Positions 2,537 through 26,034 of a stretch of DNA of 55,532 nt are shown here, piece by piece; the stretch's first letter is position 1; every line of letters starts with the position of its first letter. The DNA is taken from positions 1-55,532 of the forward strand of contig CAZCUQ010000002.1 in the NCBI GenBank assembly GCA_964501705.1, in the 5' to 3' direction. The position numbers and the translations under genes are program-made. The stretch comes from an uncultured Ruminococcus sp. Its GTDB lineage: Bacteria > Bacillota > Clostridia > Oscillospirales > Ruminococcaceae. Below the pieces are notes generated by a model. That model did no database searches and was not told the origin of the DNA. It worked only from the letters and a program-made list of their open reading frames with translations.

Positions 2537-2537
2537 G

Positions 2538-2662: not shown

Positions 2663-2727
2663 ATATTCAGTATAAAGAAGATGTATACTTTAAGTAAATT
2701 TTTATGCAAAATTACTTGAAGTGATTT

Positions 2728-2826: not shown

Positions 2827-2844
2827 GTTTTTTGAGGAGAATAC

Positions 2845-3726: not shown

Positions 3727-3899
3727 GAAATTCCGGATCAGCTTTCCGCAGATTTGGAACTTTCTTTACACAACGCGTTATCGATTACAGAATAAAAACA
3801 ACAAAAAGTATCAACTACACAAAATAACCGTTATTTTGCTTTGAATTTATTAACGATTTGTTTAATGCTACGAAAATATATAAATTTTCAATCGTTCTA

Positions 3900-5490: not shown

Positions 5491-5519
5491 TTGAAAATAA
5501 AACGTCATGGCGTTATAAT
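5491..5519 (+). promoter_or_regulatory. Sigma-70-type promoter of the XRE-regulator/PPTase pair
   Basis: TTGAAA (5491-5496), 17-nt spacer, TATAAT (5514-5519), 42 nt before the ATG at 5561. Confidence 0.5.
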
Positions 5520-5560
5520 GAAAATATGATAACGACCTGCTTTGAAAGGAGATAAATAAA

Positions 5561-6529: not shown

Positions 6530-7080
6530 TATATTTATTTGCTTCAAGGTTTATGGGACAAACCCGCGCCGAGCAGCATGAGGCGGCATACAAGCTTTTG
6601 TTTTCAAAGCTTCGGGAAGTATACAGCGTGAACGCTTCCTCGGAGATCATTCTGACGGGGATCAGCGGAAAGCCGTACTTTAAGGATATTCCGATAAGCT
6701 TTAACATTTCTCATTGCAGGGGATATGTATGCGCGGCTTTCTGCCGCAGTGACGAGGGAAACGTCGGAACCGACTGCGAAATGATACGTCCGTATAAGAA
6801 AAATATGGCGCTCAGATATTTTACCGATAAAGAGAATATCATCTGCGAAAATAACGATAAAATATTCACCGAGCTTTTTTCTCTGCACGAAAGCTATGTA
6901 AAATATACGGGCACGGGGATAGCGGGGCATTTTAAGGATATTTCCTTTGATATATGGGAGGGGAATATCCTCACCGACAGAAAAGATATTTCCTTCTATG
7001 CGTATGATATTGACGGAGGAATCGTCACTCTCTGCGCCGAAAAGAATTCGGGAGTCTATATGGGAAGTTTGAGTAAATAA
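6526..7080 (+). CDS. Sfp-type 4'-phosphopantetheinyl transferase
   Basis: The ATG at 6526 overlaps the upstream stop (ATGA). Motifs GKPYF, FNISHC, VGTDCE and LHESYVKYTG are typical of the PPTase superfamily. The ORF-track start at 6445 lies inside the upstream gene. Confidence 0.75.
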   Translation: MIYLFASRFMGQTRAEQHEAAYKLLFSKLREVYSVNASSEIILTGISGKPYFKDIPISFNISHCRGYVCAAFCRSDEGNVGTDCEMIRPYKKNMALRYFTDKENIICENNDKIFTELFSLHESYVKYTGTGIAGHFKDISFDIWEGNILTDRKDISFYAYDIDGGIVTLCAEKNSGVYMGSLSK

Positions 7081-7104: not shown

Positions 7105-7137
7105 GGCAGCACCGCACAAAGATTGCGCGGTGCCGCC
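7105..7137. terminator. Hairpin between convergent genes (possible bidirectional terminator)
   Basis: GGCAGCACCGC ... GCGGTGCCGCC stem with one mismatch, between the stops at 7080 (+) and 7162 (-). Flanking A/T runs are weak. Confidence 0.4.
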
Positions 7138-7161: not shown

Positions 7162-8034
7162 TTAGTCAGCAATAAGATTCACATAGGAATCGTCAAGCGT
7201 TTCATCTCCGTCAAACCCGCGGCACAAGCCATAATGCCCGTAATAAATGTCCTCAGCTTTATATTCCCCCGAATAATTCCAAACATCACTATGAGAATAT
7301 ACTTCCATAACTCCGCTGTAGGAATAAAAGCTGCTTATGCTTTTAATGAGAATATCCGCCTTATCCAAAGGAAAGCTTGTTTCACGGATAATGTATCTGT
7401 CGCCTTCATTTGTGCATACAGCGAAATGTGTTTTCCCCTCATAGGATGCTTCAAGAATATGTCCCTTTGTGAAAATATCGTCGTACATATATTTTTCCGT
7501 GTCACCCTCCCAATAAAACGCGTTTCCAATACTGTCAAGAAGGGCTGTGCGCAATACCGAAAACCTTTCAAAAGGACAAATCCTCCATTTAACATCACTG
7601 CTGTCGGAAGAGACATTTACCGAATAGGTGTGAAGCTTTGCAATTCTCTTATATCCCCACCTGTCATAAAGATAGACAAGCTCATCGGCTGCGGCAAATA
7701 CCATACCTGTTTTTCCGCTTTGCTTTGTAAAATTCATACAACCCTCTATCATATATTTCAGATTTCCGTGTCCCTGATAGTTTTTAAGAGTTGAAGCTGC
7801 AAAGGGAAATATGAAGCTCTGCTTTTGACCGTTTTTATCCTTGAAGTAAGCATCAAACCAATAAACCGCCGATTCAATTTCGGTTCCGTTAAAAACAACT
7901 AAAGTTCTTTCGGGAGAAAAGCTCCTTTCAAAGAAAAAGTCACAGTAGCCGTCCGCATCTTCGGGAAATCCCTCGCACCATATTTTTTTCAGAGTGTCAA
8001 TATCACTTTTCTTCGGATGTACCAGCTTTCGCAT
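7162..8034 (-). CDS. GNAT-fold N-acetyl/acyltransferase-like protein (last gene of the train)
   Basis: ATG at 8034 with GGAGG upstream, overlapping the upstream gene by 32 nt. The segment FPFAASTLKNYQGHGNLKYMIEGC resembles the GNAT acyl-CoA-binding core. Assignment is by eye only. Confidence 0.5.
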   Translation of the reverse strand: MRKLVHPKKSDIDTLKKIWCEGFPEDADGYCDFFFERSFSPERTLVVFNGTEIESAVYWFDAYFKDKNGQKQSFIFPFAASTLKNYQGHGNLKYMIEGCMNFTKQSGKTGMVFAAADELVYLYDRWGYKRIAKLHTYSVNVSSDSSDVKWRICPFERFSVLRTALLDSIGNAFYWEGDTEKYMYDDIFTKGHILEASYEGKTHFAVCTNEGDRYIIRETSFPLDKADILIKSISSFYSYSGVMEVYSHSDVWNYSGEYKAEDIYYGHYGLCRGFDGDETLDDSYVNLIAD

Positions 8035-11008
8035 TCAGTCCGCCTCCAATTACAAATAAGGTCAGCAAGCCGCAGAATATAACAGCAATTGTCAGTATTC
8101 CCTTTTGTTCTCCAAGCAGCAGCGCCGCACCGAATGCTACAGAACCGCAGGCAGACGTTATGCTTTCAATCGTGCTGTTGATTCCCAATGCGCGGCTTTG
8201 ACCGATGGTATTAACTTCCGGCATAGAAGAAAAATAAACCGACTGTGCTGATAATCCGAAGCTGTCAGCAGCCGCAAAAAGTACGATCACTATATAACAG
8301 CTTGCGATAGACGGATTGAAAACAAGATACAGCAGCGCCGCCGCATATATAAACGAAGCAAGTATCATAGACTTTCTTGTACCGAGCTTTGATATAACAG
8401 GCTCTCCCAGGGCATCTCCCGCATAAATGGATATTACCCCGCTTATAAGGAATGCCATAGATATTTCAGCGGCGGAAAGGGAATTTTCCTCCGCAACTAT
8501 CGGGAAATAATAGCTTAGGAATGATGCGCAAATCAAATAAGGAATAGCGAGACAAATGAAATAGCGTATCAGATTCGGAGTAATAAAGTCCCTGATCGAA
8601 GCATTGCTTCTTTTCCCTTCAATGACAGTCCGCTTGTTATCCAAAAGCATTATGCCAAGGATCAGAATGAGCACTGCACAAAAAGCGGCAGTGAAATAAG
8701 CAGCCGTTATTCCAAACTGCTCCCATAAAATTGAACCGACGACCGTTCCGCAGTTCATACCTGCAAGAAAAGCCGCATTGTAATGAACAAAACCCTTGTT
8801 GCGGTTTTCTTCTTCATCAAAGTCTGCTATCCGGGAATTTATCGCTATTGTGAGAAATCCTCCGCCTATGCCGCAGATACTGTTTGCGCATATAAGCATC
8901 CACAGATTTCCCGCAAAAGCTGACAGCATATTTCCTCCGATATAGAACACCGCTCCTATAAGGCACATAGGCTTTATTCCTGTCTTTTTTATGGCAAACC
9001 CACAGAACAAGGAAGAAATTGCCGATACGATCAGCTCCGCAGAAAGAGGCAGCGCCGCAGCAACTTCAGCCGGCATAGGAAAGTCTTCGTTCCAGAGCGA
9101 CATACCGTATATCGGCAGAAATGCGGTTGTTATATTCGCCGTAAAGAAAACCATAAACGCAACAGGACGAATGATCTCGGGGGAATATGAAGACTTGTCC
9201 GAAGCTGCTCTGTGCCTTGCGCGGAATGCCGTGCCGCCGTTCATGATCTCGGCAAACAGCAGCATTATTATTATAACTGCCATTGAAGAAAGTATCAGTA
9301 TATTCTTGTACAAAGCGTTGTTTTCCTGAACATAGATGTCATAATTCGCACCCACTTCGATAAATGCCAGTATTTCACCGTTTTCATCGTATGACGGAAT
9401 AAGCGCAAAGGTGTAGTTGCCCTCCGAAAGCTCATAATCCTGTGAGATATAGATTTCGCTGCTCTCCGCAAGAACTTGCTCGACAGAATTCGCGTAAGCC
9501 CCTGCCATAGGATACATTATGCTGTGTAATCCGTCATTTCTGTAAACCTCGCATATTACATTGCTGTGGATCCTGTATATTACAGCGTAAACATTGCGGG
9601 ATTCATTTGTATTGCTTTTCAAAACACTCAAAATGTCGTCGTTAAGTGCCTGATAGCTCTCGTCAAACCACATATCGGGAGAATTTAATTTTGCAACCGT
9701 TTCCTTGTCCATTGTGGCATCTATCAGATAGGCTATATTGGAAAGATTTTCGACGGATTCGGATACAAATCTTTCATTGCAGGTATTGAAGATAGTAAGA
9801 GAAACTCCTGCTGTTACCGCTATGGCAGTCAGCAAAACAAGTATCTGAGTATTATTTTTGGCAAAGCCCTCCGATCGGATCATACCAATGATTTTTATCA
9901 GTGAATAAACGGCAATTACCGCCATAAGCAGAATAGCGGCATATACACAAAGGACAATTACTTTATATCCCGGGCTTATGCCGATAATATCGCTGCTGAA
10001 TATTTCTTCGCCTGTACTGTTTACACAATTAACGAAATATGTATATTCAGATTCGTCCGTAACAGGGTCATAGCTGTATTCTGCCGATACCACAGAAATA
10101 TTTCCGCCGTCCGCGTTCAATCCCGAATAAAGAGGCGCTTCGGAAATACTTCCCGTGCTGCCGCCGCTGAAATGACCCTGTCCGATAACCTCTGTCAGCT
10201 GACCGTCAGTTCCTATGGAATACACCTTTCTGAGTCCGATGTCGCCTGCATAAAGCGTTCCGCTGCTGTAATCCACATCGGAAATAATGCTGCAATATTC
10301 ATCGGTGTCATTTTCAGACGCGTCATAAAGCAGCAGATCTTCTCCGTTTTGATATGTATGTATATCTCCGTTCATTAACGAAACATAAATATTAAGAGAA
10401 TCATCAAAGGTGCTGTCGGACACATCATCATATGCATTCTCCAAAGGCATAAAGGCACATTCCGCAGCTTCATTACCGGAGCATTTTTTAACATATATGC
10501 CGTCCTCACAAATCTCGGAAAAGTACAATTCACCCTTGATAATCCGAGGACTGTCAAGATAGATAACCTGAATATTATCTTCATCGCATGTATCCGCTTC
10601 GTAAAGCACTTCTCTTTTTCTGCCGCTGTTTGTGAATTTCAGTATTCTTTCACGATAAGCATAGGTTCCGTCATAATTATAGCTTTTATCGTGTACATAA
10701 AGCTCGCCGTTACAGGCAGCTGCGGCATCTGCATAATCAAATGTCCTGTCGGGATCGCCTCCGGGCAGTAAATATATAAGTTCATTGTTTTCATCGGTAA
10801 CGGCTATGGAATATGAAGAATCCGTAATGTAATAATTTCCGCTGTCGGTAAACACAGCCTGAACAGGATTTTCAAGATAATATTCACTTTCAAACGGATT
10901 ACTGCCTATGCAGTCTGCAAATGTGCTTACAAAAGCCGTAAGCAGCACCAAAGCGGTTATTATCAGAAATACAGAATTGCTTTTTATTTTCTCTTTAAAA
11001 TTTTTCAC
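8003..11008 (-). CDS. Large membrane protein: N-terminal TM + repeat (propeller-like) ectodomain + second Cache-like ectodomain + C-terminal MFS-type 12-TM domain
   Basis: I prefer the GTG at 11008 (AGGAG 7 nt upstream) over the ORF-track TTG at 11014. Recurrent GxLY...D repeats (GELYVHD, GELYFSE, GTLYAGD). The C-terminal ~400 aa is polytopic with MFS-like loops. Confidence 0.6.
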   Translation of the reverse strand: MKNFKEKIKSNSVFLIITALVLLTAFVSTFADCIGSNPFESEYYLENPVQAVFTDSGNYYITDSSYSIAVTDENNELIYLLPGGDPDRTFDYADAAAACNGELYVHDKSYNYDGTYAYRERILKFTNSGRKREVLYEADTCDEDNIQVIYLDSPRIIKGELYFSEICEDGIYVKKCSGNEAAECAFMPLENAYDDVSDSTFDDSLNIYVSLMNGDIHTYQNGEDLLLYDASENDTDEYCSIISDVDYSSGTLYAGDIGLRKVYSIGTDGQLTEVIGQGHFSGGSTGSISEAPLYSGLNADGGNISVVSAEYSYDPVTDESEYTYFVNCVNSTGEEIFSSDIIGISPGYKVIVLCVYAAILLMAVIAVYSLIKIIGMIRSEGFAKNNTQILVLLTAIAVTAGVSLTIFNTCNERFVSESVENLSNIAYLIDATMDKETVAKLNSPDMWFDESYQALNDDILSVLKSNTNESRNVYAVIYRIHSNVICEVYRNDGLHSIMYPMAGAYANSVEQVLAESSEIYISQDYELSEGNYTFALIPSYDENGEILAFIEVGANYDIYVQENNALYKNILILSSMAVIIIMLLFAEIMNGGTAFRARHRAASDKSSYSPEIIRPVAFMVFFTANITTAFLPIYGMSLWNEDFPMPAEVAAALPLSAELIVSAISSLFCGFAIKKTGIKPMCLIGAVFYIGGNMLSAFAGNLWMLICANSICGIGGGFLTIAINSRIADFDEEENRNKGFVHYNAAFLAGMNCGTVVGSILWEQFGITAAYFTAAFCAVLILILGIMLLDNKRTVIEGKRSNASIRDFITPNLIRYFICLAIPYLICASFLSYYFPIVAEENSLSAAEISMAFLISGVISIYAGDALGEPVISKLGTRKSMILASFIYAAALLYLVFNPSIASCYIVIVLFAAADSFGLSAQSVYFSSMPEVNTIGQSRALGINSTIESITSACGSVAFGAALLLGEQKGILTIAVIFCGLLTLFVIGGGLNAKAGTSEEK

Positions 11009-11018
11009 AGGCAAGCTC

Positions 11019-11939
11019 CTAAACTACTGTAACAGTATATTTATCGATCATTTTACAGGGACGAAGCAGAGTTTTGTCATTTTTAAGTCCCGCAACTCCT
11101 ATATCCTCACCAAGATTTATAAAGTCAACATTTTTATGTTCAATTGCCATCTGTCTGTTCAGCCAATATGTAAGTCCTCTTATCCTTTCGGCATTTTTCT
11201 GAAAATAATAACACATAGTGTTATCATTGATCTTTTCACATACCGCGAAGGATAAGGGCTTGTTTCCGTCGTATGAAACCGAGATCCTGTGTCTGTCGGG
11301 GACGTATATCTCCATAAATCTCCTAAACGCATTTTTTTCGCACCCATAAAAACAGTTTTCACATTTATGGACATCGCACCATTTATCAAAAATGCTCATA
11401 CAGTCGGAATATTTGTCGGGAGTATATTTTTCACATTTTAATTCGGGATAATGAGCTGTAATGTAATTATATCCCCCTCGTTTTGTTTTATTTGACGTAC
11501 CTGCCATAGATAAAAAAGCATCTGTGTCATAAAGATAATCGCTGAATTTTTCATCAAATGTTATTTTGGCAGAATAACCGTTTTCAATTATCAGATCCCG
11601 ATAAATTTCTGTTTCACTAAGATCAACATATTCAAAAAGCGGCTTAATATTATTTGAACGGCAATATCCGATAACAGCGTTGATTGCCTCGCACAATGCT
11701 TCATTGCTTTTGCTGAGGATACAAAAGCCCCTTCTGCTGTCAACACCGATTCCCGTGACAGCAATCGCATCTCTCAGCAAAGCATACCTGTAATTAAACC
11801 TTTCACCCCACGCATAGAACATAGAGAATGTAGTATCTCCGCAGAAATTATCATTCCTGTATTCTCTGAAATATTCATATGCCGTGCTGTCAAAAGCATT
11901 GAAATCGACAGCTGACGGGGAAAGCAAAGAAACAGCCAT
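11019..11939 (-). CDS. DUF2156-type protein (fold of the MprF aminoacyl-phosphatidylglycerol synthase C-terminal domain)
   Basis: ATG at 11939. Pattern CGDTTFSMFYAWGERF ... DYLYDTDAFLSMAGTSNKTKRGGYNY matches what I recall of DUF2156 proteins (D-x-S/T-F-x3-Y-x-W ... DYxY ... G-x4-KR-x2-N). Confidence 0.55.
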   Translation of the reverse strand: MAVSLLSPSAVDFNAFDSTAYEYFREYRNDNFCGDTTFSMFYAWGERFNYRYALLRDAIAVTGIGVDSRRGFCILSKSNEALCEAINAVIGYCRSNNIKPLFEYVDLSETEIYRDLIIENGYSAKITFDEKFSDYLYDTDAFLSMAGTSNKTKRGGYNYITAHYPELKCEKYTPDKYSDCMSIFDKWCDVHKCENCFYGCEKNAFRRFMEIYVPDRHRISVSYDGNKPLSFAVCEKINDNTMCYYFQKNAERIRGLTYWLNRQMAIEHKNVDFINLGEDIGVAGLKNDKTLLRPCKMIDKYTVTVV

Positions 11940-12006: not shown

Positions 12007-13404
12007 TTATCCTTCATCCATAATCGACTTAATATTTTCCTCATAACTATCCTTAAAAAAGCTGCACGCCATCGGATCCTTTTCAAAATATCCGCCGCAG
12101 GCAAGCGCATTTGCACGGCAGCCCGAGCAGCGGTATCTGTTTTCACAGGCAGCACATTCGGAATTATTTTTAAAAAGCTCTTTATATGTGTAAGAACAAT
12201 AGGTGTCGATTGGCGACACGCTGAGAGCTTTTTCAAGGCTTTGCCCTTCATCGAAAATATTCGGCGCTATGTTTTCCATAGAAGAACCACTCATTGCAAT
12301 ACACGGCAGCAGCCGTCCATCAGGAAGAAGATATGGAAAAACACGAACCGTTTCACAAAGATAATCAGATTCCCTTTCGCAGCTCCCGCAGCCTGACACA
12401 AAAGGTATATACCACTTTTCCGAATTATTTTTGAAGCCCTGAAAAAATCCGCCTAATCCAAGACGCAAAGGCATACCCTCGTTCTTGTATATTTTGATAA
12501 GCTTAATATATTCATCGAAAACCGCGGAATAATTTATGCCTCTGTCCGATTGACCCCGCCAGTTTCCCGTATCGACAATCGGCACTGCCTTCCAGTGCAT
12601 TACTCCAAGCTCCTTCATAAGTTCATATGTATCAATAAGCGAACCGATATTTCCGTTATGAAGAGAGGTTGAAACCGTAACTTCATATCCGCGGCTTCGT
12701 ATAAGTTTTATTGCGGCGACAGCCTTCTTTTCAGCGCCCTTAACTCCTCTGAGCCAGTCGTGACAGTTTACGCCGTCAAAGCTGAGCATAAAACAATTAG
12801 GATGAAGATCACGGCTTTGAAATTCGTCCATAAACTTTTCATCGACAGCAATACCATTGGTAAACACCTGAAGCAGTGTGATATGGTTTTCCGAAAGCAT
12901 ATCAACTATCTTCCAGAAATCCTTCCGAACAAGCGGTTCGCCGCCTGTAAGCGCAACCATATCAACGTTAGCTTCCCTGCACTGTCTTATGACTTCTCTG
13001 CATTTTTCAAGAGAAACCTCACCGTATTTGTTTTCATCAGAAGAGATATAGCAATGTCTGCACCGAAGATTACAGTTTCCTGTAACAGACCAAAGCATCG
13101 TGTGGGTGTATTTTGCCTCGGTATATCGGTATTTCTGATAATCCTCAAGTTTTTTATCCCTGCCGCACTCAACGAGAAAGCCTTTTGCGGCGGCAAGCTC
13201 TGTCATTTTCCTCAGCTTTTTCGGAATCAAAGGCTCGTCTGCCGATACTCCGCCTGCTGTAAGAAGCTCCAATGCCTCAAACTGCAATTGAGTAAGAATG
13301 AGAACACGGTCACGGATATTTTTACATTCAAGATCCACCACCGCATACTTTATATCTTTCCAGCCTCTCAGCGCATATTGGGGTTTAAGAGTAAAATACC
13401 GCAT
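12007..13404 (-). CDS. Radical SAM / SPASM-domain peptide maturase with N-terminal RRE-like region
   Basis: AGGAGAG RBS. CNLRCRHC (Cx3Cx2C) and TGGEPL SAM motifs. C-terminal Cys clusters CGSCERESDYLC ... PC and CAACENRYRCSGCRANALACGG. About 95 aa precede the rSAM core. Confidence 0.85.
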   Translation of the reverse strand: MRYFTLKPQYALRGWKDIKYAVVDLECKNIRDRVLILTQLQFEALELLTAGGVSADEPLIPKKLRKMTELAAAKGFLVECGRDKKLEDYQKYRYTEAKYTHTMLWSVTGNCNLRCRHCYISSDENKYGEVSLEKCREVIRQCREANVDMVALTGGEPLVRKDFWKIVDMLSENHITLLQVFTNGIAVDEKFMDEFQSRDLHPNCFMLSFDGVNCHDWLRGVKGAEKKAVAAIKLIRSRGYEVTVSTSLHNGNIGSLIDTYELMKELGVMHWKAVPIVDTGNWRGQSDRGINYSAVFDEYIKLIKIYKNEGMPLRLGLGGFFQGFKNNSEKWYIPFVSGCGSCERESDYLCETVRVFPYLLPDGRLLPCIAMSGSSMENIAPNIFDEGQSLEKALSVSPIDTYCSYTYKELFKNNSECAACENRYRCSGCRANALACGGYFEKDPMACSFFKDSYEENIKSIMDEG

Positions 13405-13512
13405 TTGTTTCTCTCCTGTCTTATGTTATTAATACCGAACGCTCCCGAATCTTTTAAAGAGAACAGACGACTCCACAATAAGCTATGAAGCCGTCTGCCC
13501 GACCCGGATATT

Positions 13513-13571
13513 ATGCCGTTTTCCCGCGCAGGTCATTTACGTGTATAACGTTCTGCGCGGATTTGCGGCAT
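13513..13571 (-). promoter_or_regulatory. Compound stem-loop between the last precursor gene and the maturase gene (possible attenuator or processing site)
   Basis: On the minus strand: ATGCCG-caaat-CCGCGCAG-(21 nt)-CTGCGCGG-gaaaa-CGGCAT. There is no clear U-tract. Confidence 0.35.
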
Positions 13572-13577
13572 TGCTGA

Positions 13578-13877
13578 TTAAAGATTTACATTAAGATTGC
13601 CTACTCCGTTGCCGCATACAACATCTCCGGTATGACCCTTACCGCCTGCTACAGAATCAAGGTCATCCTCATCAAGCTCCGTGTTGTCACCGTTCAGATA
13701 TGCCTTTGCTTCCTCAATGGTAATGTCGAAGCCAAGCTTCTTTGCAAGCACGCCAATCTTTGCGAGCTGCTCATCGGAAGCCTCTTCAAACTTTTTATCA
13801 CCAAGAATAGTGATAAGCTCCTTCTTTGCCGCGTCATCCGCAACAGCCTTTGCGTAGAATTCAGTTACCTTACTCAT
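13578..13877 (-). CDS. RiPP precursor D, Nif11-type leader (99 aa); core KGHTGDVVCGNGVGNLNVNL
   Basis: AAGGAGG RBS. Leader MSKVTEFYAKAV ... SDEQLAKIGVLAKKLGFDITIEEAKAYL ... LDEDDLDSVAGG has the Nif11 leader pattern with a double-Gly cleavage motif. Confidence 0.85.
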   Translation of the reverse strand: MSKVTEFYAKAVADDAAKKELITILGDKKFEEASDEQLAKIGVLAKKLGFDITIEEAKAYLNGDNTELDEDDLDSVAGGKGHTGDVVCGNGVGNLNVNL

Positions 13878-13952
13878 TGTAAGTTCCTCCTTTTAATTTA
13901 CGGTTTCCCGCATAGTATATGTATAAGCCTTTGAAGGCTCAATACCTTGAAA

Positions 13953-14279
13953 TTATTCGGATATGAGGGGTCCGGACTCGCTTACTTCCGGTTTGCCGCC
14001 TACCTGGCAAACAATTATTTTTGTTTCGTAATGATCCCCCTTGCCGCCGGCAACAGCATCGAGGTCGTCATCATTGAGAGCAGCCTCTTCAGGGTCAAGA
14101 AATTCCCTTGCCTCACTGACTGTAATGCTATATCCAAGTTCCCCGGCAATCACGCTCAGTGCTTCAAGCTGTTCATCGGAAGCGTTTTCCATTGTTTTGC
14201 CGTTAAGTATATCGGCAGCTCTTTTCCGTGTGCTTTCATCTGAAATAAGTTTTTCATAAAAATCGCAGAATTTGCTCAC
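13953..14279 (-). CDS. RiPP precursor C, Nif11-type leader (108 aa, GTG start); core KGDHYETKIIVCQVGGKPEVSESGPLISE
   Basis: GTG at 14279 is preceded by GGAGAGGAG. From that codon the product (M)SKFCDFYEKLI... aligns with the other three leaders. The ORF-track extension to 14453 overlaps precursor B out of frame. Confidence 0.8.
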   Translation of the reverse strand: MSKFCDFYEKLISDESTRKRAADILNGKTMENASDEQLEALSVIAGELGYSITVSEAREFLDPEEAALNDDDLDAVAGGKGDHYETKIIVCQVGGKPEVSESGPLISE

Positions 14280-14301
14280 AATTCCATCTCCTCTCCGAAT
14301 T

Positions 14302-14640
14302 TCAATAGGCAGGGTGAACGGTAGGCTCGTTATTGTTATCATCATATCCTGCCTGTCCGCCGACTTCGCATACATGAATCTCGGTATAATGGGTCTGATT
14401 CTTTCCTCCGGCAGCGGCATCAAGGTCGTCATCATCAAGCTCCGCAAAGTCATTATTCAGATATTCTCTTGCCTCATCAGCGGTAATATCGAAGCCGAGC
14501 TTCTTTGCGAGTATGCCTATTTTTTCGATCTGCTCATCGGATACATTTTGTATCTCTGTTCCGTTCAGTATATCGGCAAGTTCTTTGTTTGCAGCCGAAT
14601 CCGAAATTGCCTTGCTGTAAAAATCCGTAATTTTGCTCAT
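14302..14640 (-). CDS. RiPP precursor B, Nif11-type leader (112 aa); core KNQTHYTEIHVCEVGGQAGYDDNNNEPTVHPAY
   Basis: CAGGAGG RBS. Leader MSKITDFYSKAI ... SDEQIEKIGILAKKLGFDITADEAREYL ... LDDDDLDAAAGG. Confidence 0.85.
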   Translation of the reverse strand: MSKITDFYSKAISDSAANKELADILNGTEIQNVSDEQIEKIGILAKKLGFDITADEAREYLNNDFAELDDDDLDAAAGGKNQTHYTEIHVCEVGGQAGYDDNNNEPTVHPAY

Positions 14641-14669
14641 ATAAAAACCTCCTGTAATTTTTTATTTTC

Positions 14670-14999
14670 TTAAGATTGGGTAACGCCGCCGCCGTTTGAA
14701 CCATTACATTCAAATTTCAATGTATCGCCTCTGTATAAAGATATACGCGATGAGTTTCCCTTTCCGCCTGCGACAGCATCAAGGTCATCATCATCAAGCT
14801 CTGTATCATCACCGCGCAGATACGCCTTTGCTTCTTCAACGGTAATGTCAAATCCCATCTGCTTTGCGATTTCTCCGATCCTTTCAAGCTGTTCATCGGC
14901 TGCCTGCGCAATATCAGAGCCATCGAGTATTTTGCCAAGCTCTGCATTCTTTTCACTGTCTGCAAGTACCGCAGAATAAAAATCATTGATCTTACTCAT
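14670..14999 (-). CDS. RiPP precursor A, Nif11-type leader (109 aa); core KGNSSRISLYRGDTLKFECNGSNGGGVTQS
   Basis: ATG at 14999 (AAAGGTG upstream) gives MSKINDFYSAVL..., collinear with the paralogues. The ORF-track start at 15050 overlaps the upstream gene. Confidence 0.85.
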   Translation of the reverse strand: MSKINDFYSAVLADSEKNAELGKILDGSDIAQAADEQLERIGEIAKQMGFDITVEEAKAYLRGDDTELDDDDLDAVAGGKGNSSRISLYRGDTLKFECNGSNGGGVTQS

Positions 15000-15015
15000 C
15001 TGAAATTCACCTTTC

Positions 15016-15756
15016 TTACTTTTTGTTAATGCTGCTCTGTCCCGAAGCATCTTCCTTGACGGAAGAAGGATTTCCCGAATAGTTAATGGTACTCATACCC
15101 GAGGCTTCTGCGTCAAGCTCATTTTTCGCATAGACCTCCGCTGAAGATGTTCCCGAAACAGATACCTTTACATTGCCCGCCTCAGCATCGGCGGCATTAA
15201 GCTTCGATACACCGGAAATATCATACGAAGCCAGGTCGCAGCTTCCCTTAACGCTTACAACGGAAGCTCCTTCAGCCGATACATTTATTTCCGTAACCTC
15301 CTCGGGAATTGTATAATCAGTCTGAACACTTCCGCTTACATTGACAGAGGAAACCTTTGCGCCAATAGTAAGCGTGTAATTCATATTTTCATACATTACT
15401 CCCGATCTGCCCGACAAAATGATTTTTTGGCCCGCTTCGTCAACAGATAATGTCAGATCATCACATACATTATCATCAGCCTCTATTTTTGATTCGGACG
15501 CGGAAGGATCGATAATCACCTTGATATTTGAGTTGCTGTTGCTTATAGTGCCTGTGGAGAAGCTGTAAATGCCATCGGGAACAGAAACGCTTTTTTCTGT
15601 CATTGAACCGCTGCCCTTGATAATTTCAGAAAACTCTTCATCATTCATATCAATCACAACAGAATCGGAATATGTATCCTCTTCTCCGCAAGCAGTAAAT
15701 GCTCCGAGAATTGCCGCCGCGGATAAAATCACCGCGGCCGCTTTCTTTTTTTTCAT
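15016..15756 (-). CDS. Lipoprotein with DUF2807/GIN-type beta-helical repeat domain
   Basis: I prefer the ATG at 15756 (AAAGGTGGGG 5 nt upstream). Signal plus lipobox-like AFTAC. Repeated S/T-G-x-S/V strands (VSGSVQT, SAEGASVV, ISGVSKL, VSGTSSAEV, YSGNPSSV, ASGQSSI). Confidence 0.6.
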   Translation of the reverse strand: MKKKKAAAVILSAAAILGAFTACGEEDTYSDSVVIDMNDEEFSEIIKGSGSMTEKSVSVPDGIYSFSTGTISNSNSNIKVIIDPSASESKIEADDNVCDDLTLSVDEAGQKIILSGRSGVMYENMNYTLTIGAKVSSVNVSGSVQTDYTIPEEVTEINVSAEGASVVSVKGSCDLASYDISGVSKLNAADAEAGNVKVSVSGTSSAEVYAKNELDAEASGMSTINYSGNPSSVKEDASGQSSINKK

Positions 15757-15779
15757 AATAACCCCACCTTTCATATTAT

Positions 15780-16517
15780 TTAAGCGGTAAGCCCGCCATC
15801 TATGATAAATGTCTGTCCCGTAATATAGACCGACTTATCGCTTGCAAGGAATACACAAAGCTCCGCAACCTCCGAGGGCTTTCCAAAACGTCCCAAAGGA
15901 ATTTCGGCAATGCACTTGTTTTTGTATTCATCATCAAATCCCGCTGTCATAGCCGTTTCGATATATCCCGGAGCAACAGCGTTTACCCTGATATTTTTTG
16001 AAGCCAATTCAAGAGCGGCAGCTTTTGTAATGCCTATAATACCCGCCTTGGAAGCACAGTAGCTGCTCTGACCCGCACCGCCCTTAACACCGAAAACAGA
16101 ACTGATGTTAATTACCGAACCGTGCTTTTGTGACATCATCGGAATCGCTGCGGCCTGCATTGCGGCAAAAACAGCGGACAGATTGCAGTTTATCACATTG
16201 TCCCAGTTTTCTTTTCCGGCTGAAAACAGCAGTTCGGGACAAGCTATTCCCGCCGCGTTGATAAGCGCGTCTATTCCGCCCATAGCTTTTATCTGCTTTT
16301 TTATTGACGGAGATATGCTGTCCCTGTCGGAAAGATCAAGACAGAATGGAAACAGCTTATCGGGAAATTCCTCCGAAAGCTCTTCAATAGCAGCCGAACC
16401 GTTTCTGTATGATCCCGATACGACCGCTCCCTCTCTGATACATTCGGCGGCACAGGCAAGACCTATCCCGCCCGAAGCACCTGTTATTATCACTTTTTTT
16501 CCTTCAAGAATACCCAT
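15780..16517 (-). CDS. SDR-family 3-oxoacyl-ACP reductase (FabG-like), cluster-specific
   Basis: TGASGGIGLA (TGxxxGxG) and YCASKAG (YxxxK). The ATG abuts the upstream stop. Confidence 0.8.
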   Translation of the reverse strand: MGILEGKKVIITGASGGIGLACAAECIREGAVVSGSYRNGSAAIEELSEEFPDKLFPFCLDLSDRDSISPSIKKQIKAMGGIDALINAAGIACPELLFSAGKENWDNVINCNLSAVFAAMQAAAIPMMSQKHGSVINISSVFGVKGGAGQSSYCASKAGIIGITKAAALELASKNIRVNAVAPGYIETAMTAGFDDEYKNKCIAEIPLGRFGKPSEVAELCVFLASDKSVYITGQTFIIDGGLTA

Positions 16518-17546
16518 CTAACACGCCTCCGACAGCATACAGCAGTAATTCCCCGCTGTGTCTGTACCCGTTACAAGAATGGTTTTAACGCTGTCAAGCG
16601 ACTTATCCGCAAAATTATCGGACACCTTGCCTGTTTTTAACACCGCAGCGGCAAGAGCGGCACTCAACATATATCCGCTGCCGAGAGTTTCGCCAAACAG
16701 CCGTTTGGGATAAGCATATACCGTTCTGTTCTCAAATACGCTGTCCATTGCTTCTTTTTCTATGCTGTCGAAGTATGTCCCGTTTGCCGCTGTGAACACC
16801 GCATCGGGAACTTTATCGCCGCAAATCTCTGATACAGCTTTAGCAATAAGCTTTGAGCATTGTTTATCGGCCGAAGCTGTCAAGGGATAAACGGGAAGCA
16901 GCGCCGATGAAAAATCCGATACCTTGCAGTATGTGTTCAAGCTCTTTTCGGCTCTGACCGTAAAAACTGCAGTACCCTCCGAAATGTCGCTGCCCGCGGC
17001 CGTTTTGAGGGTTTTGATTGAATCAAACAGCTCCCCTGAATACTCCTCCACAGAACCGCACAGGATAACGTCCGCCTTTTTGCCGCTCAGAAGAAGCGAG
17101 GTATACTCCAAAGGGTCGCCGCCCATAAGAACGGTACTGACACCCTTATAGCCGTTTACAATACATATCTGACCGACGCAGGAATTCGGAACGGTTCCCG
17201 AAAACACTGTAGGACTGCACAGCGCGGGATTTCCCCTTGCCACCGAATCGGAAAACCGAATGTTGCTTTCCGCAGCGCCGAAGCCTGTTGAAATTATCGT
17301 CCCGACTCTTGTTACGTCAATATCATCGGGGTATTTTCCGTCAATCCTTGCAAAATCGGCAGCGGCGACAGCGAGCTTACTGTATCTGCTGCATCTTCTC
17401 AGTTTTGAGGACGGTACGTTCGACGTAAATTCCGGTCTGCCGCCGTTTATTTCGGGGATTTTGCCCTCGGCGATCTTCATAAGCTCAGCAGCGGACATCG
17501 CACATCGGGAGATAATTCCGATCCCGTCAATATATACGGGCTTCAT
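16518..17546 (-). CDS. Beta-ketoacyl synthase-like protein (chain-length-factor type partner of the KS)
   Basis: Thiolase-fold KS N-terminal-like sequence (YIDGIGIISRCA ... VPNSCVGQICIVNGYKG ... VILCGSVEEYS), only 342 aa and without the C-H-H triad motifs. TAATG overlap with the KS gene. Confidence 0.6.
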   Translation of the reverse strand: MKPVYIDGIGIISRCAMSAAELMKIAEGKIPEINGGRPEFTSNVPSSKLRRCSRYSKLAVAAADFARIDGKYPDDIDVTRVGTIISTGFGAAESNIRFSDSVARGNPALCSPTVFSGTVPNSCVGQICIVNGYKGVSTVLMGGDPLEYTSLLLSGKKADVILCGSVEEYSGELFDSIKTLKTAAGSDISEGTAVFTVRAEKSLNTYCKVSDFSSALLPVYPLTASADKQCSKLIAKAVSEICGDKVPDAVFTAANGTYFDSIEKEAMDSVFENRTVYAYPKRLFGETLGSGYMLSAALAAAVLKTGKVSDNFADKSLDSVKTILVTGTDTAGNYCCMLSEAC

Positions 17547-18736
17547 TACGCTTCACCTCCGCTGTATTTTTTTACAAGAACACTTGCGCTGTTTCCCGCA
17601 AAAGCGAAGCTGTCGGAAATGGCACAGTTTATATCCATATCACGATTTTTAAGGATAATATACACATTATCCGCTCCCATGACAGGTTCTGTCAGATTTG
17701 GCATAATTATCGCCTTATTGTACTTCATAGACAGAATAACGCTGATAAGCTCTGCCGCACCCGAAGCACCCATACAATGTCCGATAAGCGCCTTGGTGGA
17801 TGATAACGCAGGCTTTTTTGCGCTGCCTTTATATATCCTGTTTATAGCCTTTATTTCCATACTGTCGTTTATTGCGGTGCCCGTACCGTGACCGTTTATG
17901 TAATCGACCTCGTCAATGTCGGTACTGCCATCGGAAAGTGCGGAAAGCATTGTGCGGTATGCTCCGCTTCCGTCAGGCTCGGGGCTTGTAATATGGTACG
18001 CATCGTTGCCGATACTGTAGCCCGCTATCTCACAATAGATATTTGCATTTCTTTTCAGGGCGTGTTCAATGGATTCAAACATAAGAAATGCGCCGCATTC
18101 GCCGATATTTATGCCGTCACGTTTTTCATCGTAAGGATTGCAGGTACCGCTGCTCAGTGATTTCAGCGCATTAAATCCATACGCCGCAACTATTGTCAAA
18201 GGATCTGCACCGCCCACAACAGCCATATCGCATATACCGTTTCTTATGTAATCGAGTGCCATCCCCGCCGCAGTAGTTCCCGAAGCGCAGGCGGCGGATG
18301 AAACACTTGCTCCGCCTTTTACACCCGTAAGCTCTTTGATGTATGAAATATAGTCATTCATTCCGGCAAGAGTTCCGTCTGATGGCTTGCCGTCTGCTTT
18401 GTTAATGCTGTGCTTATAATAGGAGCCTGTATTTGAAAGGAGCGTTCCGTAAAAAAGGCGGCAATTTTTGCCCTCGGACGAAAGCGTTTCCCTGTCAAGC
18501 CCGCAGTCGGAAAGCATTTCGGCGCAGGATTTTTTGATAAGTATGCGAAGCCTTGCGTCAGTGTCCCTTTCGTCAATATCCGCTTCACCGAAATATTCGG
18601 TAAGAAGCCCATCGGTACTGAAAGCAGTGCATTTTTTTATACCGCTTATTCCCTCCGAACAAGCTTTGATAAATTCCGACTTATTATTTGCATTTCCGCA
18701 GACGATTCCCATTCCCGTAACAACGACTTTTTTCAT
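17546..18736 (-). CDS. Beta-ketoacyl-ACP synthase II-type condensing enzyme (FabF-like)
   Basis: I prefer the ATG at 18736 (MKKVVVTGMGIV) over the TTG at 18742. Active-site motifs SAACASG, NGHGTGT and GHCMGASG. Confidence 0.85.
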   Translation of the reverse strand: MKKVVVTGMGIVCGNANNKSEFIKACSEGISGIKKCTAFSTDGLLTEYFGEADIDERDTDARLRILIKKSCAEMLSDCGLDRETLSSEGKNCRLFYGTLLSNTGSYYKHSINKADGKPSDGTLAGMNDYISYIKELTGVKGGASVSSAACASGTTAAGMALDYIRNGICDMAVVGGADPLTIVAAYGFNALKSLSSGTCNPYDEKRDGINIGECGAFLMFESIEHALKRNANIYCEIAGYSIGNDAYHITSPEPDGSGAYRTMLSALSDGSTDIDEVDYINGHGTGTAINDSMEIKAINRIYKGSAKKPALSSTKALIGHCMGASGAAELISVILSMKYNKAIIMPNLTEPVMGADNVYIILKNRDMDINCAISDSFAFAGNSASVLVKKYSGGEA

Positions 18737-18738
18737 AA

Positions 18739-19005
18739 TCAACCCTCATGTGTCCGGATATATTCCGCAATGTTATTTACGGAACTGAGCAGGCGCATAT
18801 CTTCGGAAGGCACATCAATCCCCCAGGTATCATAAATCATAACCGCCAGCTCAAGAGCGTCAACGGAATCCAGTCCCATAGTTACCTCATCACCGCTTCC
18901 CGATCCGAAAACAGGTGAATCATATGTAAATCCTTCAATTTCCGTGGTGTCAACGTCCATAGTTTCAATAATTTTTTCAAAAATCAAGTTTTCAATAGTT
19001 TCCAT
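18739..19005 (-). CDS. Acyl carrier protein (non-housekeeping type)
   Basis: 88 aa, GGAGG RBS. Phosphopantetheine site GLDSVDALEL in the helix II context. Confidence 0.8.
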   Translation of the reverse strand: METIENLIFEKIIETMDVDTTEIEGFTYDSPVFGSGSGDEVTMGLDSVDALELAVMIYDTWGIDVPSEDMRLLSSVNNIAEYIRTHEG

Positions 19006-19018
19006 AGAGAATCCTCCG

Positions 19019-19903
19019 TTAATGCAGTATATAGTTTATTGAGCATTTTACCGATGATGTAACTATTCCAAGCAGTTTTTTTTGAAATTTATTTGCCCTG
19101 TCATTGTTTTCATACATAGCATAAACTGCCCGCTTGCAGTCAAAGGTCTTGAACATTTCCATTGACCCCGCAAAGGCAAGAAGAATACAGCCGCTTCCCA
19201 GATACCTTTCAGACGCGGAAATATGCTCAAAAACAGCACTGCTTTTATCGGGAGTGCTTACCAGCGTATAAGCGGCAAGCTCATTTTCCCTGAAAACGGC
19301 ATAGCTCATTTTTCTGCTGAGATACCTGTTCGGATCGTCGAAAAAAGGCTTCACATCAAGCTCATTCCGAAAATTGTTTTCGCCTGACAGATAAATATCT
19401 GAAATACGCTTCTCCGGCAGATCCGCAAAGCTGACCTTTGAAAATCCCTGACGGTTAAGCATATTGCAAAGCTTTCCGCCCGTGTCTGCCATATATTCCT
19501 CCCAGCGGATAAAATCCTCCGATTTTCCGCTGAAAACATTGCAGACCGAGCCTTTTTCAAAACCGCATTTCAGGCAAGCTCTTGATACCGCCGCAAAATA
19601 TCGGTGTTTCTCGGTAATACCGACTCTTACGGGCTTCGGCATATTTTCTGCCGCAAAGCTAAGGAGAGCTGAAAATACTCCTTTTTCTCTCTCGGTTTCA
19701 ATTGTATATCCATAAAGCAGCCTCGTAAATCCGCTGTCAGCCGACAGGCATACATAGCCGACTGCCTGTCCGTTTTCCCACAGCATATATATCCTGCCGC
19801 CTGTTGATAAAGCGCTCTTTGCCGAAATATCCGAAAGCCGGCTTCTGCTTTCGCCGAAAAGGAAAATGTAATCTGTAAAAGTCGCTTCGGCTATTTTACG
19901 CAT
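19019..19903 (-). CDS. Tandem GNAT-like acyltransferase (candidate peptide N-acyltransferase)
   Basis: Two halves each resemble a GNAT core (ENGQAVGYVCL ... ETEREKGVFSALLSFA; ENELAAYTLV ... SERYLGSGCILLAF). By-eye assignment. 8-nt overlap with the upstream gene. Confidence 0.45.
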   Translation of the reverse strand: MRKIAEATFTDYIFLFGESRSRLSDISAKSALSTGGRIYMLWENGQAVGYVCLSADSGFTRLLYGYTIETEREKGVFSALLSFAAENMPKPVRVGITEKHRYFAAVSRACLKCGFEKGSVCNVFSGKSEDFIRWEEYMADTGGKLCNMLNRQGFSKVSFADLPEKRISDIYLSGENNFRNELDVKPFFDDPNRYLSRKMSYAVFRENELAAYTLVSTPDKSSAVFEHISASERYLGSGCILLAFAGSMEMFKTFDCKRAVYAMYENNDRANKFQKKLLGIVTSSVKCSINYILH

Positions 19904-20744
19904 ATTTACACATTCCTTCCAACCCGATTTCGCAAAGATATTTTACCCGTTCATCACGGGACATTTTTTTGAATTCATCGCTGACGGCAAACGCTTCGAG
20001 ATATTCGGAAGCGCTTACTGCCGTTTCGGAAACCGCTTTTCCCACCTTGTCGGAAAGACCCACGGTGTAAAATTTCAGCCTGCCGCCGCTTGTACCCGTA
20101 ATTCCCATAAATCTTAGAAAATGCTCGGCTTTATAATATCCGAACGCTTCATACAGTCCGAAAAAATCAGCCATTATCTCATCGTGCAGACGATTTTGCG
20201 AAAGACCGTATTTCTGTTTGGTGAAATAGTGGGTACACTCGTGCTCACGTCGAATTATCATTGACCTTTCGGACCATTCTTCTTCCGAAAGTCCCATCTC
20301 GGAAGCGGGGACATTGCTGTAAGGCTTTGCGGACAGAATAATAAATCTTGTGGATTTTCCGAACGCGAAGGATGCTCCCGTTTCGGAAAGACCGTCGGGA
20401 CGGATTCCCTTGTATATCGCATTTGTGACCAACGCTTCAAAGTCATTTTTATCGGACAGATAAATGATCGGTATCTCCCCCGCAAAGGAATTGTAAATTT
20501 CAAGTCTTATCCTTTCGGGTGATCTGAAATCAACAGGCCGCTTCGGGCATACATATCCGTTTATCGCCTCCGCTGCGCCGCGATCGGCAGCGACAGAAGC
20601 TATATTCCGCCATTTTTCAAGAAATGCCGTATCATACGCGATATTTTCAGTGCAGTCTGCAAACCCGTTTGATATGTATTCTCTGTACTCCTTCTCTTCA
20701 TCGGAAGAAAGAGCGTATTTGGCTATAATTTCGTTTATTGTCAA
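19896..20744 (-). CDS. Uncharacterised protein with HExxH motif (putative metallopeptidase)
   Basis: HECTH at ...IIRREHECTHYFTKQ..., followed by LHDEIMADFFG. I prefer the TTG at 20744 (GGAGGTG 5 nt upstream) over the ORF-track TTG at 20789, which overlaps the ABC gene. Confidence 0.5.
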   Translation of the reverse strand: MTINEIIAKYALSSDEEKEYREYISNGFADCTENIAYDTAFLEKWRNIASVAADRGAAEAINGYVCPKRPVDFRSPERIRLEIYNSFAGEIPIIYLSDKNDFEALVTNAIYKGIRPDGLSETGASFAFGKSTRFIILSAKPYSNVPASEMGLSEEEWSERSMIIRREHECTHYFTKQKYGLSQNRLHDEIMADFFGLYEAFGYYKAEHFLRFMGITGTSGGRLKFYTVGLSDKVGKAVSETAVSASEYLEAFAVSDEFKKMSRDERVKYLCEIGLEGMCKYA

Positions 20745-20766
20745 GCTAACACCTCCGATAGCGGCA

Positions 20767-22929: not shown

Positions 22930-22943
22930 ATTTTTCACCTCGG

Positions 22944-25091: not shown

Positions 25092-25102
25092 ATTGTGCCT
25101 CC

Positions 25103-26014
25103 TTATGATACAAGAAGCTCAACAGGAAGATACTCGCTTGTCACAACTATGATTGAACACTGCGTTCCAAGCTCAACAGGAAGGTTTTCTCCTTTACTGT
25201 TTGACCATTTATATGAATTGCCTGAATTTTCATCGAGATCCAATCTGATTCTTATTTCCACAAATGAACCTTCGGGAAGTATATTTTCCACATAAGAAAG
25301 AGTACCCATCTTTGAGATAATACTTTCCTCCGAAACCGGCGTTTCGGATATTGAAGTGATAATACCCGTCATATATCCGTATTCCTCTCTTGCGGCATAA
25401 GAAGGAGACACCTGTGCCGTCATACCGAGGCTGAGAGAATTCGCGGTCTGCATAGGTACATAAGCAACTACCTCATTATATCCGCTGTCAGACATTACAG
25501 ACGATATTGTGTCGCCTGCTTCTATCGCACTTCCGCAGGGCTTTACAGACTGAATATATCCCGAACTGCTGCTTTTTATGACTGTTGTGGCGACATAAGT
25601 GTCAACAAGCTCTTCTATTCTGTTTTCAAGATTTATATATTCATCGCTGCCGTTTTCAAGCGCTGCCAGCTCATAGCGATAAGCGTCAATTTTATCCAGC
25701 AGTTCATTATTTGATACGACCGCGATTATATCTCCAATGTTGACATAATCGCCGCTGCTTACGAGAACATCTGTGACTACGCAGCTTCTGTCTGCTGTGC
25801 TGCTTAAAATATTGTTATTTGTAAAAACAACGCCCTTAATATTCACTCCGTTTGTGATTTTATATGTAACGCTCCAAACAATAAATGTAATAAGTGCTGT
25901 CACAAGTGCCATATAAATTATCCAGACAGACGGGCGCATTATCTTTACCTGCTTATCAAGCTGCTCGGGAGTAGCCATTGTATCAAGAGCGGTTTTTCTG
26001 AATAGTTCTGCCAT
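25103..26014 (-). CDS. HlyD-family secretion adaptor of the bacteriocin export system
   Basis: N-terminal FRKTALDTMATPEQLD, then a single TM, then a barrel-sandwich/lipoyl-like region (GDYVNIGDIIAVV ... AGDTISSV). Confidence 0.7.
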   Translation of the reverse strand: MAELFRKTALDTMATPEQLDKQVKIMRPSVWIIYMALVTALITFIVWSVTYKITNGVNIKGVVFTNNNILSSTADRSCVVTDVLVSSGDYVNIGDIIAVVSNNELLDKIDAYRYELAALENGSDEYINLENRIEELVDTYVATTVIKSSSSGYIQSVKPCGSAIEAGDTISSVMSDSGYNEVVAYVPMQTANSLSLGMTAQVSPSYAAREEYGYMTGIITSISETPVSEESIISKMGTLSYVENILPEGSFVEIRIRLDLDENSGNSYKWSNSKGENLPVELGTQCSIIVVTSEYLPVELLVS

Positions 26015-26034
26015 TATTATTCACCCCTTACATA

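Follow-up and report, generated by a model that had tools for sequence, protein, structure and literature searches.

The window analyzed here is a 55,532-nt stretch of contig CAZCUQ010000002.1 from an uncultured Ruminococcus sp. (assembly GCA_964501705.1; 2.0 Mb, 98% complete). Its minus strand carries a three-gene cassette encoding a 306-aa protein of the DUF2156 family, a 1001-aa membrane protein and a 290-aa GNAT acyltransferase. We found that the cassette is real and co-inherited and that it is built around an apparently undescribed fusion of a receptor ectodomain with a transporter of the major facilitator superfamily (MFS), all of the parts having known folds. The reading that we tentatively prefer, as a serious possibility that falls just short of probable, is a make-export-sense loop, in which the two enzymes would produce a small acylated signal and the MFS would export it under the control of the sensing ectodomain.

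Results

Organization of the cassette and architecture of the large protein

The open reading frame (ORF) for the DUF2156 protein ends in a TAG codon at position 11019, and the large gene begins with GTG at 11008 after a 10-nt gap; a TAGGAG sequence over the DUF2156 stop codon forms the ribosome-binding site of the large gene. The original prediction, made from the sequence alone, described these two genes as a pair, and its coordinates, gap, start codon and protein sizes were all confirmed. The proposed coupling of the two genes also held, but not as a pair only, as the GNAT gene, which overlaps the large gene by 32 nt, belongs to the unit as well.

Hydropathy analysis placed four hydrophobic segments ahead of the MFS domain of the large protein (residues 8-35, 341-379, 386-410, and 564-595). 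An AlphaFold (AF2) model built with 21 alignment rows (mean predicted local distance difference test score, pLDDT, 79.6) consisted of six four-strand groups (residues 50-339) followed by two paired helices, a mixed domain (410-560), and a long helix running into the 12 helices of the MFS. Hydropathy, Pfam and the model thus bore out the predicted N-terminal transmembrane (TM) helix, repeat-rich ectodomain, TM-flanked second ectodomain and 12-TM MFS module, and the prediction was right to single out the joining of sensor-like domains to an MFS as the unusual part. The three GELY/GTLY repeats on which it remarked (residues 101, 159, and 250) are strands of propeller blades. Profile searches matched this region to Pizza6/7 (E 3e-10), Thin NHL (E 3e-8), the PknD sensor (E 0.003), and the NHL domains of TRIM proteins; the propeller call rests on these matches together with the model strands, whole-model fold searches having returned MFS matches only. 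Both ectodomains are strongly acidic, the propeller having 58 D/E against 15 K/R, and this acidity and the TM count place both domains, by prediction, outside the cell, with the MFS starting inside as is normal.

The second ectodomain was also folded alone (pLDDT 84.3), and its fold matches included the CitA sensor (2j80; Z 12.1, root-mean-square deviation (rmsd) 3.0, 125 residues aligned), the formate chemoreceptor 8py0 (Z 11.1, rmsd 3.3, 135 aligned), and WalK (Z 11.0); a Foldseek search of the region returned chemoreceptor domains at E 1e-5. The domain has the features of a Cache domain, namely a PAS-like fold predicted to lie outside the cell, a long N-terminal helix, and TM helices on both sides. 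The guess of a propeller and a double Cache domain was therefore right for the propeller and for the Cache fold but not for its doubling, as there is one subdomain of ~150 residues and the best fold matches are single domains. No Pfam Cache model matched the 1001-aa protein at E 0.01, and the protein atlas returned for the ectodomain only clusters scoring below 0.9, with one sCache_3_2 lead at 0.80. Database names for the large protein are limited to "MFS transporter" or "arabinose efflux permease".

The MFS domain was matched by Pfam MFS_1 (residues 619-928, E 4e-27), and its fold matches included NorA (Foldseek E 4e-10) and SotB (Z 35.3, rmsd 2.9, 359 aligned). Its fold neighbors are mostly efflux antiporters; LtaA, an MFS lipid flippase (6s7v), ranked 37 of 50 (Z 27.1), and the MprF flippase family gave no match to the large protein in Pfam, NCBIfam or fold searches. 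All 12 helices are conserved, as are the cavity acids E658, D915, and E948. D915 aligns with D307 of NorA, and 99 of 148 relatives have D or E at this position; at the position of E948, 123 of them do. With a mean identity of 51%, the MFS is the best conserved part of the protein, compared to 44% for the Cache domain and 35% for the propeller.

Relationship of the ectodomain to cyclase receptors

Related loci were collected from 32 genome loci, all drawn from Clostridia and many of them near-identical kin. Nine of these loci, as well as a genome of the same genus, encode a 908-942-aa neighbor with a HAMP domain and a class III cyclase domain. The N-terminal part of this protein aligned with the ectodomain of the large protein over 502 columns (probability 99.2, E 3e-19). 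Because the same propeller-Cache ectodomain heads HAMP-cyclase receptors, we regard it as a receptor module that here has a transporter as its output. Identity between the MFS and cyclase types is ~20%, against 33-37% within a type (three loci), and the two types are old sisters.

When an ectodomain profile was run against 1.84 billion representatives, 344 matches were obtained at E up to 1e-30. The best 150 comprised 126 propeller-Cache-MFS, three Cache-MFS, and 11 propeller-Cache-cyclase proteins and 10 fragments; the propeller-Cache-MFS architecture is thus common to at least 126 sequence clusters. Ten relatives were looked up, and their organisms include Treponema and Oscillospiraceae. In even genome samples, with the source genome not counted, carriers of the ectodomain amounted to 6/400 at the level of the order, 4/399 for the class and 5/400 for the phylum, 11 of these 15 being MFS-type. 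Roseburia zhanii BX1005 (L009) is a cultured carrier. No description of the propeller-Cache-MFS architecture or of the cassette was found in the literature searched, a set that left out most subscription papers.

Variants of the large gene were also observed. In one locus (L018 9371-12949, the same as L052) an N-terminal GAF domain is joined to the large protein to give 1192 aa, a form seen once, and SpoIIE, CHASE2, and DUF4157 genes occur in that locus. Decayed copies were found at L010 9500-11000, in fragments, and at L020 2271-4790, where an apparent deletion runs from ABC1 into the large gene.

Co-inheritance of the three genes

In 28 of the 29 related loci that could be tested, the DUF2156 gene lies 5′ of the large gene, in one as a decayed remnant; the sole locus without it shows an apparent deletion. 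In eight loci a TIM-barrel gene on the opposite strand intervenes between the two. The position directly 3′ of the large gene is occupied by a GNAT gene in 25 of the 32 loci and by a Leu/Phe-tRNA protein transferase gene in three, with neither in the remaining four. A natural fusion of the large protein and the GNAT through a repeat linker (P0023/L079; 1402 aa) places the fused GNAT at the inner face of the membrane. In the same-genus genome, the DUF2156, large, cyclase, and GNAT genes occur together on an 18-kb contig with no exporter or precursor gene. One locus (L147) has a formyltransferase gene (5508-6332) in the GNAT slot and a 416-aa gene (1267-2517) 5′ of the large gene; the latter matched nothing in Pfam, NCBIfam or PDB, although its motifs suggest a possible likeness to a glutamate-cysteine ligase.

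The association was equally visible from the side of the enzyme. In a tree of 70 DUF2156 sequences (17 duplicate or near-identical loci omitted), the cassette copies formed one long-branch clade of 39 (FastTree support 1.0, SH-aLRT 96.3). The large gene is next to 36 of them, and a gene with a similar N-terminus, judged by eye, stands at a contig end beside one more; of the other two, one lies where its contig ends and one is a true exception. None of the 30 other DUF2156 copies in the tree has the large gene beside it, and one housekeeping-type copy stands in tandem, 5′ of a cassette copy. Since many members of the clade had been found via the large gene, a reverse test was run, in which 24 metagenome loci were fetched by DUF2156 patterns. 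Eighteen had the cysteine motif of the clade described below, and the large gene lay downstream in 16 of these 18, several of the loci belonging to the same lineages as the genome loci; three housekeeping-type loci lacked the large gene. The pairing of the DUF2156 gene with the large gene is not due to chance. When residues 382-994 of the large protein were modeled in complex with the DUF2156 protein, the scores were 0.23 and 0.20 (mark 0.32), and they were counted neither for nor against binding.

A second, housekeeping DUF2156 copy is encoded elsewhere in the same genome, and 34 of 41 related genomes likewise have a housekeeping copy. A GNAT gene lies directly downstream of 15 of 27 housekeeping copies, and the large gene is found within the 1.5-kb flanks of none of the 27. 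As a GNAT gene so often follows the housekeeping copy, the cassette looks like a specialized copy of the housekeeping DUF2156-GNAT pair arranged around a transporter gene.

The DUF2156 enzyme

The assignment of the 306-aa protein to DUF2156 proved correct, as it matched PF09924 at E 2e-20 (73.5 bits; Pfam cut-off 27.5). The protein has no hydrophobic segment by hydropathy. Its sole PDB match was 2HQY (BT_3689), at E 1e-12 by sequence and at E 2e-49 in a profile search, with profile positions 22-310 covered; among the three PDB profile matches at E up to 10 only 2HQY was significant, and no aminoacyl-phosphatidylglycerol synthase structure was present. A profile of the cassette clade aligned (hhalign) to housekeeping 2HQY-type copies at E 1e-60, compared to 6e-10 for MprF-type domains represented by a profile of four long MprF-type proteins, and because it is far closer to the former we assign the enzyme to the stand-alone BT_3689/2HQY type. 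No longer or fused forms of the clade were found among 5231 candidates searched, which is weak evidence.

The clade is marked by a W-C-x4-C-x2-C-x3-C motif, present in 38 of 39 members, invariant in 21/21 alignment rows, and absent from 27/27 housekeeping copies. It aligns with an FSLG stretch of MprF-type domains, and its four cysteines are a candidate metal site. The DLMR-type motif of the second GNAT fold, which we take to be catalytic, is missing; aligned via the housekeeping profile, it corresponds to HxEK, here YFQK. The clade retains a late conserved Lys and a basic helix (K151, K153, and R154, the last invariant). According to work on MprF and aminoacyl-phosphatidylglycerol synthases, this helix lies between the GNAT folds (PMC8913301, PMC6103681) and is needed by aminoacyl-tRNA transferases for tRNA binding (PMC8913301). 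Because the helix is kept, the use of aminoacyl-tRNA by the cassette enzyme is conceivable. The structure 2HQY, by contrast, is described as holding acetyl-CoA, and a stand-alone relative in H. pylori (HPB8_1270) is reported from deletion mutants to contribute to lysine acetylation (PMC10700544). Thus, with the basic helix kept, the DLMR-type motif lost and acetyl-CoA bound in 2HQY, the donor is not fixed: it may be acetyl- or another acyl-CoA, or an aminoacyl-tRNA.

The peptide cluster and other neighbors of the cassette

The cassette lies near the end of a long minus-strand gene run that starts with genes for a binding protein, an HlyD-like adaptor, and two NHLP-type ATP-binding cassette (ABC) transporters and continues through fatty-acid-type genes, four Nif11-like precursor genes and a radical SAM gene. 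The peptide cluster between exporter and cassette is context and no constant part of the cassette. Of the 24 loci with 4 kb or more of upstream sequence, one has precursor genes next to the pair, and a peptide cluster with precursors occurs in only 1 of the 32 related loci. A whole-genome search with precursor profiles matched one of 14 other carrier genomes, the known positive (most of the 14 are incomplete assemblies; four are 91-100% complete). For TIGR03798 and TIGR03793 the only clear match was the L001 control, and exporter-only carriers had none over the cut-off, with weak matches at E 0.009 and 0.05.

The four predicted cores have basic/acidic counts of 1/1, 3/5, 1/5, and 4/2, and three of them are thus without net positive charge. 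Each of these cores, and that of L001, has Lys as the first residue after Gly-Gly and a single Cys. A GNAT gene beside the acyl carrier protein (ACP) gene of the cluster is confined to precursor loci. The product of the cluster is likely an acylated, cross-linked ribosomal lipopeptide, selidamide-like but with a dedicated acyl chain. As in published selidamide-type Nif11/NHLP lipopeptide clusters (PMC8784127, PMC2887384), there are Nif11-like precursors with Lys at core position 1, a GNAT and an NHLP exporter trio; the likeness covers the upstream cluster only, the cassette being found mostly without precursors. A phosphopantetheinyl transferase gene (6445-7080, plus strand), convergent on the cassette terminator, could prime the ACP. 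Directly 5′ of the binding protein gene lies a tyrosine integrase gene (27474-28595, minus strand), with the same arrangement in the L001 genome (L053 3329-4447); its position suggests that the whole cluster is carried on an integrative element. Further away, a 688-aa protein with YidC-like and glycerophosphotransferase domains (38257-40323, minus strand) is encoded beside nucleotidyltransferase, aminotransferase, and sulfatase-like genes.

Other carriers have different neighbors. In 14 of 32 loci the binding protein/HlyD/ABC block stands on the upstream side of the cassette, and in some of these it is itself preceded by Ig-repeat surface proteins. Contractile injection tube genes were found in 5/5 genomes of loci with degenerate ABC genes versus 0/5 other carriers, and on the contig of the cassette in the four such loci with a placeable contig. 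In two complete genomes the large gene, without DUF2156, belongs to one run with Pvc16, DUF4280, AAA, and DUF4157 genes, the exporter block, and sheath, tube, and baseplate genes. Complete contractile injection operons were also observed in Oscillospirales loci L046 and L066 (G278) and L043 and L067 (G089), where the binding protein, HlyD, and two degenerate ABC genes lie between cargo and sheath genes; the C39 domain is kept and no ATPase domain was detected in ABC1. In the operons of a published survey of injection systems, MFS_1 is depleted, and neither Peptidase_C39 nor HlyD_3 is counted even once (PMC8213781). A SpoIIE phosphatase gene lies within two genes of the large gene in 7 of the 11 even-sample MFS-type carriers.

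In injection-system loci the DUF2156 slot is taken by a 377-461-aa family (L046 3886-5259, L043 14947-16320, L047 12764-13897, and L149 5445-6830) that matched nothing in Pfam, NCBIfam, PDB or the protein atlas, the PDB giving weak, unrelated hits only. A likeness of this 457-aa family to TrpRS/TyrRS was not supported, its hhalign probabilities (0.10 and 0.13) being no better than those of 20 shuffled controls. In L005 and L006 (~1950-3800) an Lgt-like membrane domain precedes the binding protein in the same reading frame (612-619 aa). In L059 and L068 (G559), very large proteins of no known function (1274-2286 aa) alternate with small GNAT-like genes and AAA ATPases in an array that resembles cargo-immunity arrays and ends in DUF2156, the large gene, SpoIIE, and an anti-sigma kinase.

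Table 1. Features of the cassette and of its surroundings in the window.
Feature	Positions	Strand	Basis
Stand-alone DUF2156 double-GNAT protein, 306 aa, BT_3689/2HQY type, four-cysteine clade	11019..11939	-	PF09924, 2HQY match, tree
W-C-x4-C-x2-C-x3-C motif (C188, C193, C196, C200)	11340..11378	-	alignment
Receptor-transporter fusion, 1001 aa: TM, propeller, 2 TM, single Cache, TM, 12-TM MFS	8003..11008	-	AF2 model, hydropathy
NHL-type beta-propeller, predicted extracellular, residues ~45-342	9983..10876	-	six four-stranded blades counted from model strand list
Single Cache (PDC) sensor domain, predicted extracellular, residues ~412-562	9323..9775	-	fold matches
NorA/DHA1-like MFS domain, residues ~612-990	8039..9175	-	MFS_1, fold matches
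GNAT acyltransferase, 290 aa, third cassette member	7162..8034	-	Acetyltransf_9, E 1e-5
Terminator-like hairpin at operon end	7105..7137	-	15 pairs, 10 G-C, T-rich tail; consensus match only
Peptide cluster: DUF7005, GNAT, ACP, two ketosynthase-like, FabG, lipoprotein, four Nif11-like precursors, radical SAM	12007..20789	-	exporter-to-cassette interval
Linked exporter: Peripla_BP_6 binding protein, HlyD-like adaptor, C39-peptidase ABC transporter, second ABC transporter	20767..27156	-	TIGR03794, TIGR03796, TIGR03797 above cut-off

Discussion

A make-export-sense loop is the simplest account of a cassette that combines a conserved MFS, flanking and even fusable transferases, a receptor ectodomain, and co-encoded cyclases and phosphatases. 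The propeller and the Cache domain would bind a ligand outside the cell, and the helix that follows the Cache domain, which drives HAMP in ordinary receptors, would run into the first MFS helix and control transport. The DUF2156 protein and the GNAT, as a duplicated and specialized copy of a common clostridial gene pair, would act at the inner face of the transporter to acylate or aminoacylate a small, amino-acid-derived molecule. The MFS would export the product against protons, and the ectodomain would read its level outside. The trio may then be a mobile signaling cassette tied to costly secretion programs, which would be an acylated ribosomal peptide here and contractile injection systems or surface proteins elsewhere.

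Several observations weigh against this loop. The Asp of motif A and the Arg of TM4, which we take to be the canonical gating residues of the MFS, are kept in only 25 and 21 of 148 relatives, respectively, and are K674 and N709 here, a loss that also fits a sensor that does not transport. The GNAT or a substitute is missing from 4/32 loci, and the cassette GNATs split into two separate clades, so that the pair was perhaps not duplicated as one unit. For one four-cysteine DUF2156, the large gene was found neither in the neighborhood nor elsewhere in the genome, which is 90% complete. Only 4 of 10 testable even-sample carriers have DUF2156, which is thus not obligatory across the family, with the 457-aa family present in others; the large protein is the constant of the family, and DUF2156 is the commonest enzyme partner in one part of it. 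Near-identical kin among the loci mean that our counts overstate independence. Finally, the sole functional data on a stand-alone DUF2156 relative, from deletion mutants, concern protein lysine acetylation.

The same parts could be run inward, which we consider unlikely: the lipoprotein and ectodomain would catch a peptide or signal, the MFS would import it, and the GNAT and DUF2156 protein would acylate it, either to inactivate it in self-protection or to end the signal. The Peripla_BP_6 binding protein in the exporter block of many loci would suit such capture, and its divergence tracks that of the large protein (Spearman 0.75 across 11 loci that, as kin, are not independent); the inner-face position of the fused GNAT and the presence of 2hj9 among the Cache fold matches point the same way. 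Pairs of a binding protein and a Cache receptor are established, as in LuxP-LuxQ. However, the binding protein is absent from cyclase-type and SpoIIE-type loci, most carriers have no precursor, and the fold neighbors of the MFS are for the most part efflux antiporters.

If the MFS does not transport at all, it could be a conformational relay, with the DUF2156 protein and the GNAT as outputs that acetylate proteins when the ectodomain is occupied. The poorly kept gating residues and the use of the same ectodomain to drive cyclases agree with such a sensor, as do the replacement of the GNAT by a protein-modifying Leu/Phe-tRNA protein transferase in three loci and the reported effect of the H. 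pylori protein on lysine acetylation of RNase J (PMC10700544). We nevertheless judge it decidedly unlikely, given that the 12 helices and the three cavity acids are conserved and the MFS is the best conserved domain.

The original prediction offered two other functions, neither of which survived well. One was a tailoring step, in which the Nif11-type peptide or its lipid would receive an amino acid or acyl group through the DUF2156 protein. Here and in L001 and L002 the gene does share the operon and directly follows the radical SAM gene, and PF09924 members such as VlmA are reported to tailor natural products with aminoacyl-tRNA (PMC9379638); local co-option is conceivable. The step is nevertheless very unlikely: the pair is not co-conserved with precursors (1/24 informative loci, 1/14 other genomes), an outcome that the original prediction had itself named as refuting, and a more plausible agent of peptide acylation is the GNAT encoded beside the ACP. 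The other, a split MprF in which aminoacyl-phosphatidylglycerol produced by the DUF2156 protein would be flipped by the MFS and so shield the producer from a cationic peptide, is highly improbable, for although PF09924 matched, the basic helix and late Lys are kept, and MFS lipid flippases such as LtaA exist, the enzyme groups with 2HQY rather than MprF, no synthase structure or MprF flippase was matched, YFQK replaces the DLMR-type motif, the cores are mostly without net positive charge, and the large ectodomains are left unexplained.

The nearest known systems each match the cassette in part. Cache receptors (CitA, WalK, chemoreceptors, HAMP-cyclases, and SpoIIE/RsbU phosphatases) share the outside single Cache fold between two TM helices, and HAMP-cyclases the whole ectodomain, but the output of the large protein is a 12-TM MFS without HAMP. 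NorA/DHA1 drug-proton antiporters and YajR share the MFS fold and an acid at the NorA D307 position, whereas the large protein has ~600 extra residues, two outside domains and four more TM helices, and its family has mostly lost the motif A Asp and TM4 Arg. UhpC and yeast Snf3/Rgt2 are MFS-fold proteins tied to signaling that sense via the MFS cavity itself and, unlike the large protein, are not known to carry an outside propeller or Cache domain. BT_3689 (2HQY) and HPB8_1270 agree with the cassette enzyme in length, double-GNAT profile, and common motifs; the latter differs by its long-branch clade, four cysteines, FQKN in place of HxEKA, and its occurrence as a second copy beside a housekeeping copy in the genome. 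MprF and the aminoacyl-phosphatidylglycerol synthases share the Pfam family and the basic helix, but their profile match is distant, active-site stretches are changed, and the cassette has no MprF flippase domain.

Among the extracellular sensors of bacteria, Cache domains are the most common. A 2016 survey names chemoreceptors, kinases, cyclases, phosphatases, transcription factors, and channel subunits as their partners, with no transporter among the outputs, and its main text contains neither the word "transporter" nor "MFS" (PMC4822843). The survey could have missed a transporter partner, because its models were built from proteins with known signaling outputs. If our reading is true, the cassette would add transport to the outputs of one-component signaling and illustrate the external gating of a secondary transporter. 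The cassette also gives a handle on stand-alone DUF2156 proteins, which are almost unstudied and here have fixed partners and a distinctive motif, and it links the peptide exporters, contractile injection operons and phosphatase/cyclase signaling of gut Clostridia via one cassette. A broader proposal, which we put forward as doubtful, is that the fusion represents a signal transducer of a new class, namely a secondary transporter gated by a ligand through direct control by a propeller-Cache receptor, which together with the cysteine-cluster acyltransferase, the GNAT and the sister cyclases might serve cell-density signaling that times the release of lipopeptides and injection systems in gut Clostridia. 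Taken together, the recurrence of the trio beside very different secretion and signaling genes makes it look like an undescribed sensing-and-transport module, not an antibiotic-immunity device.

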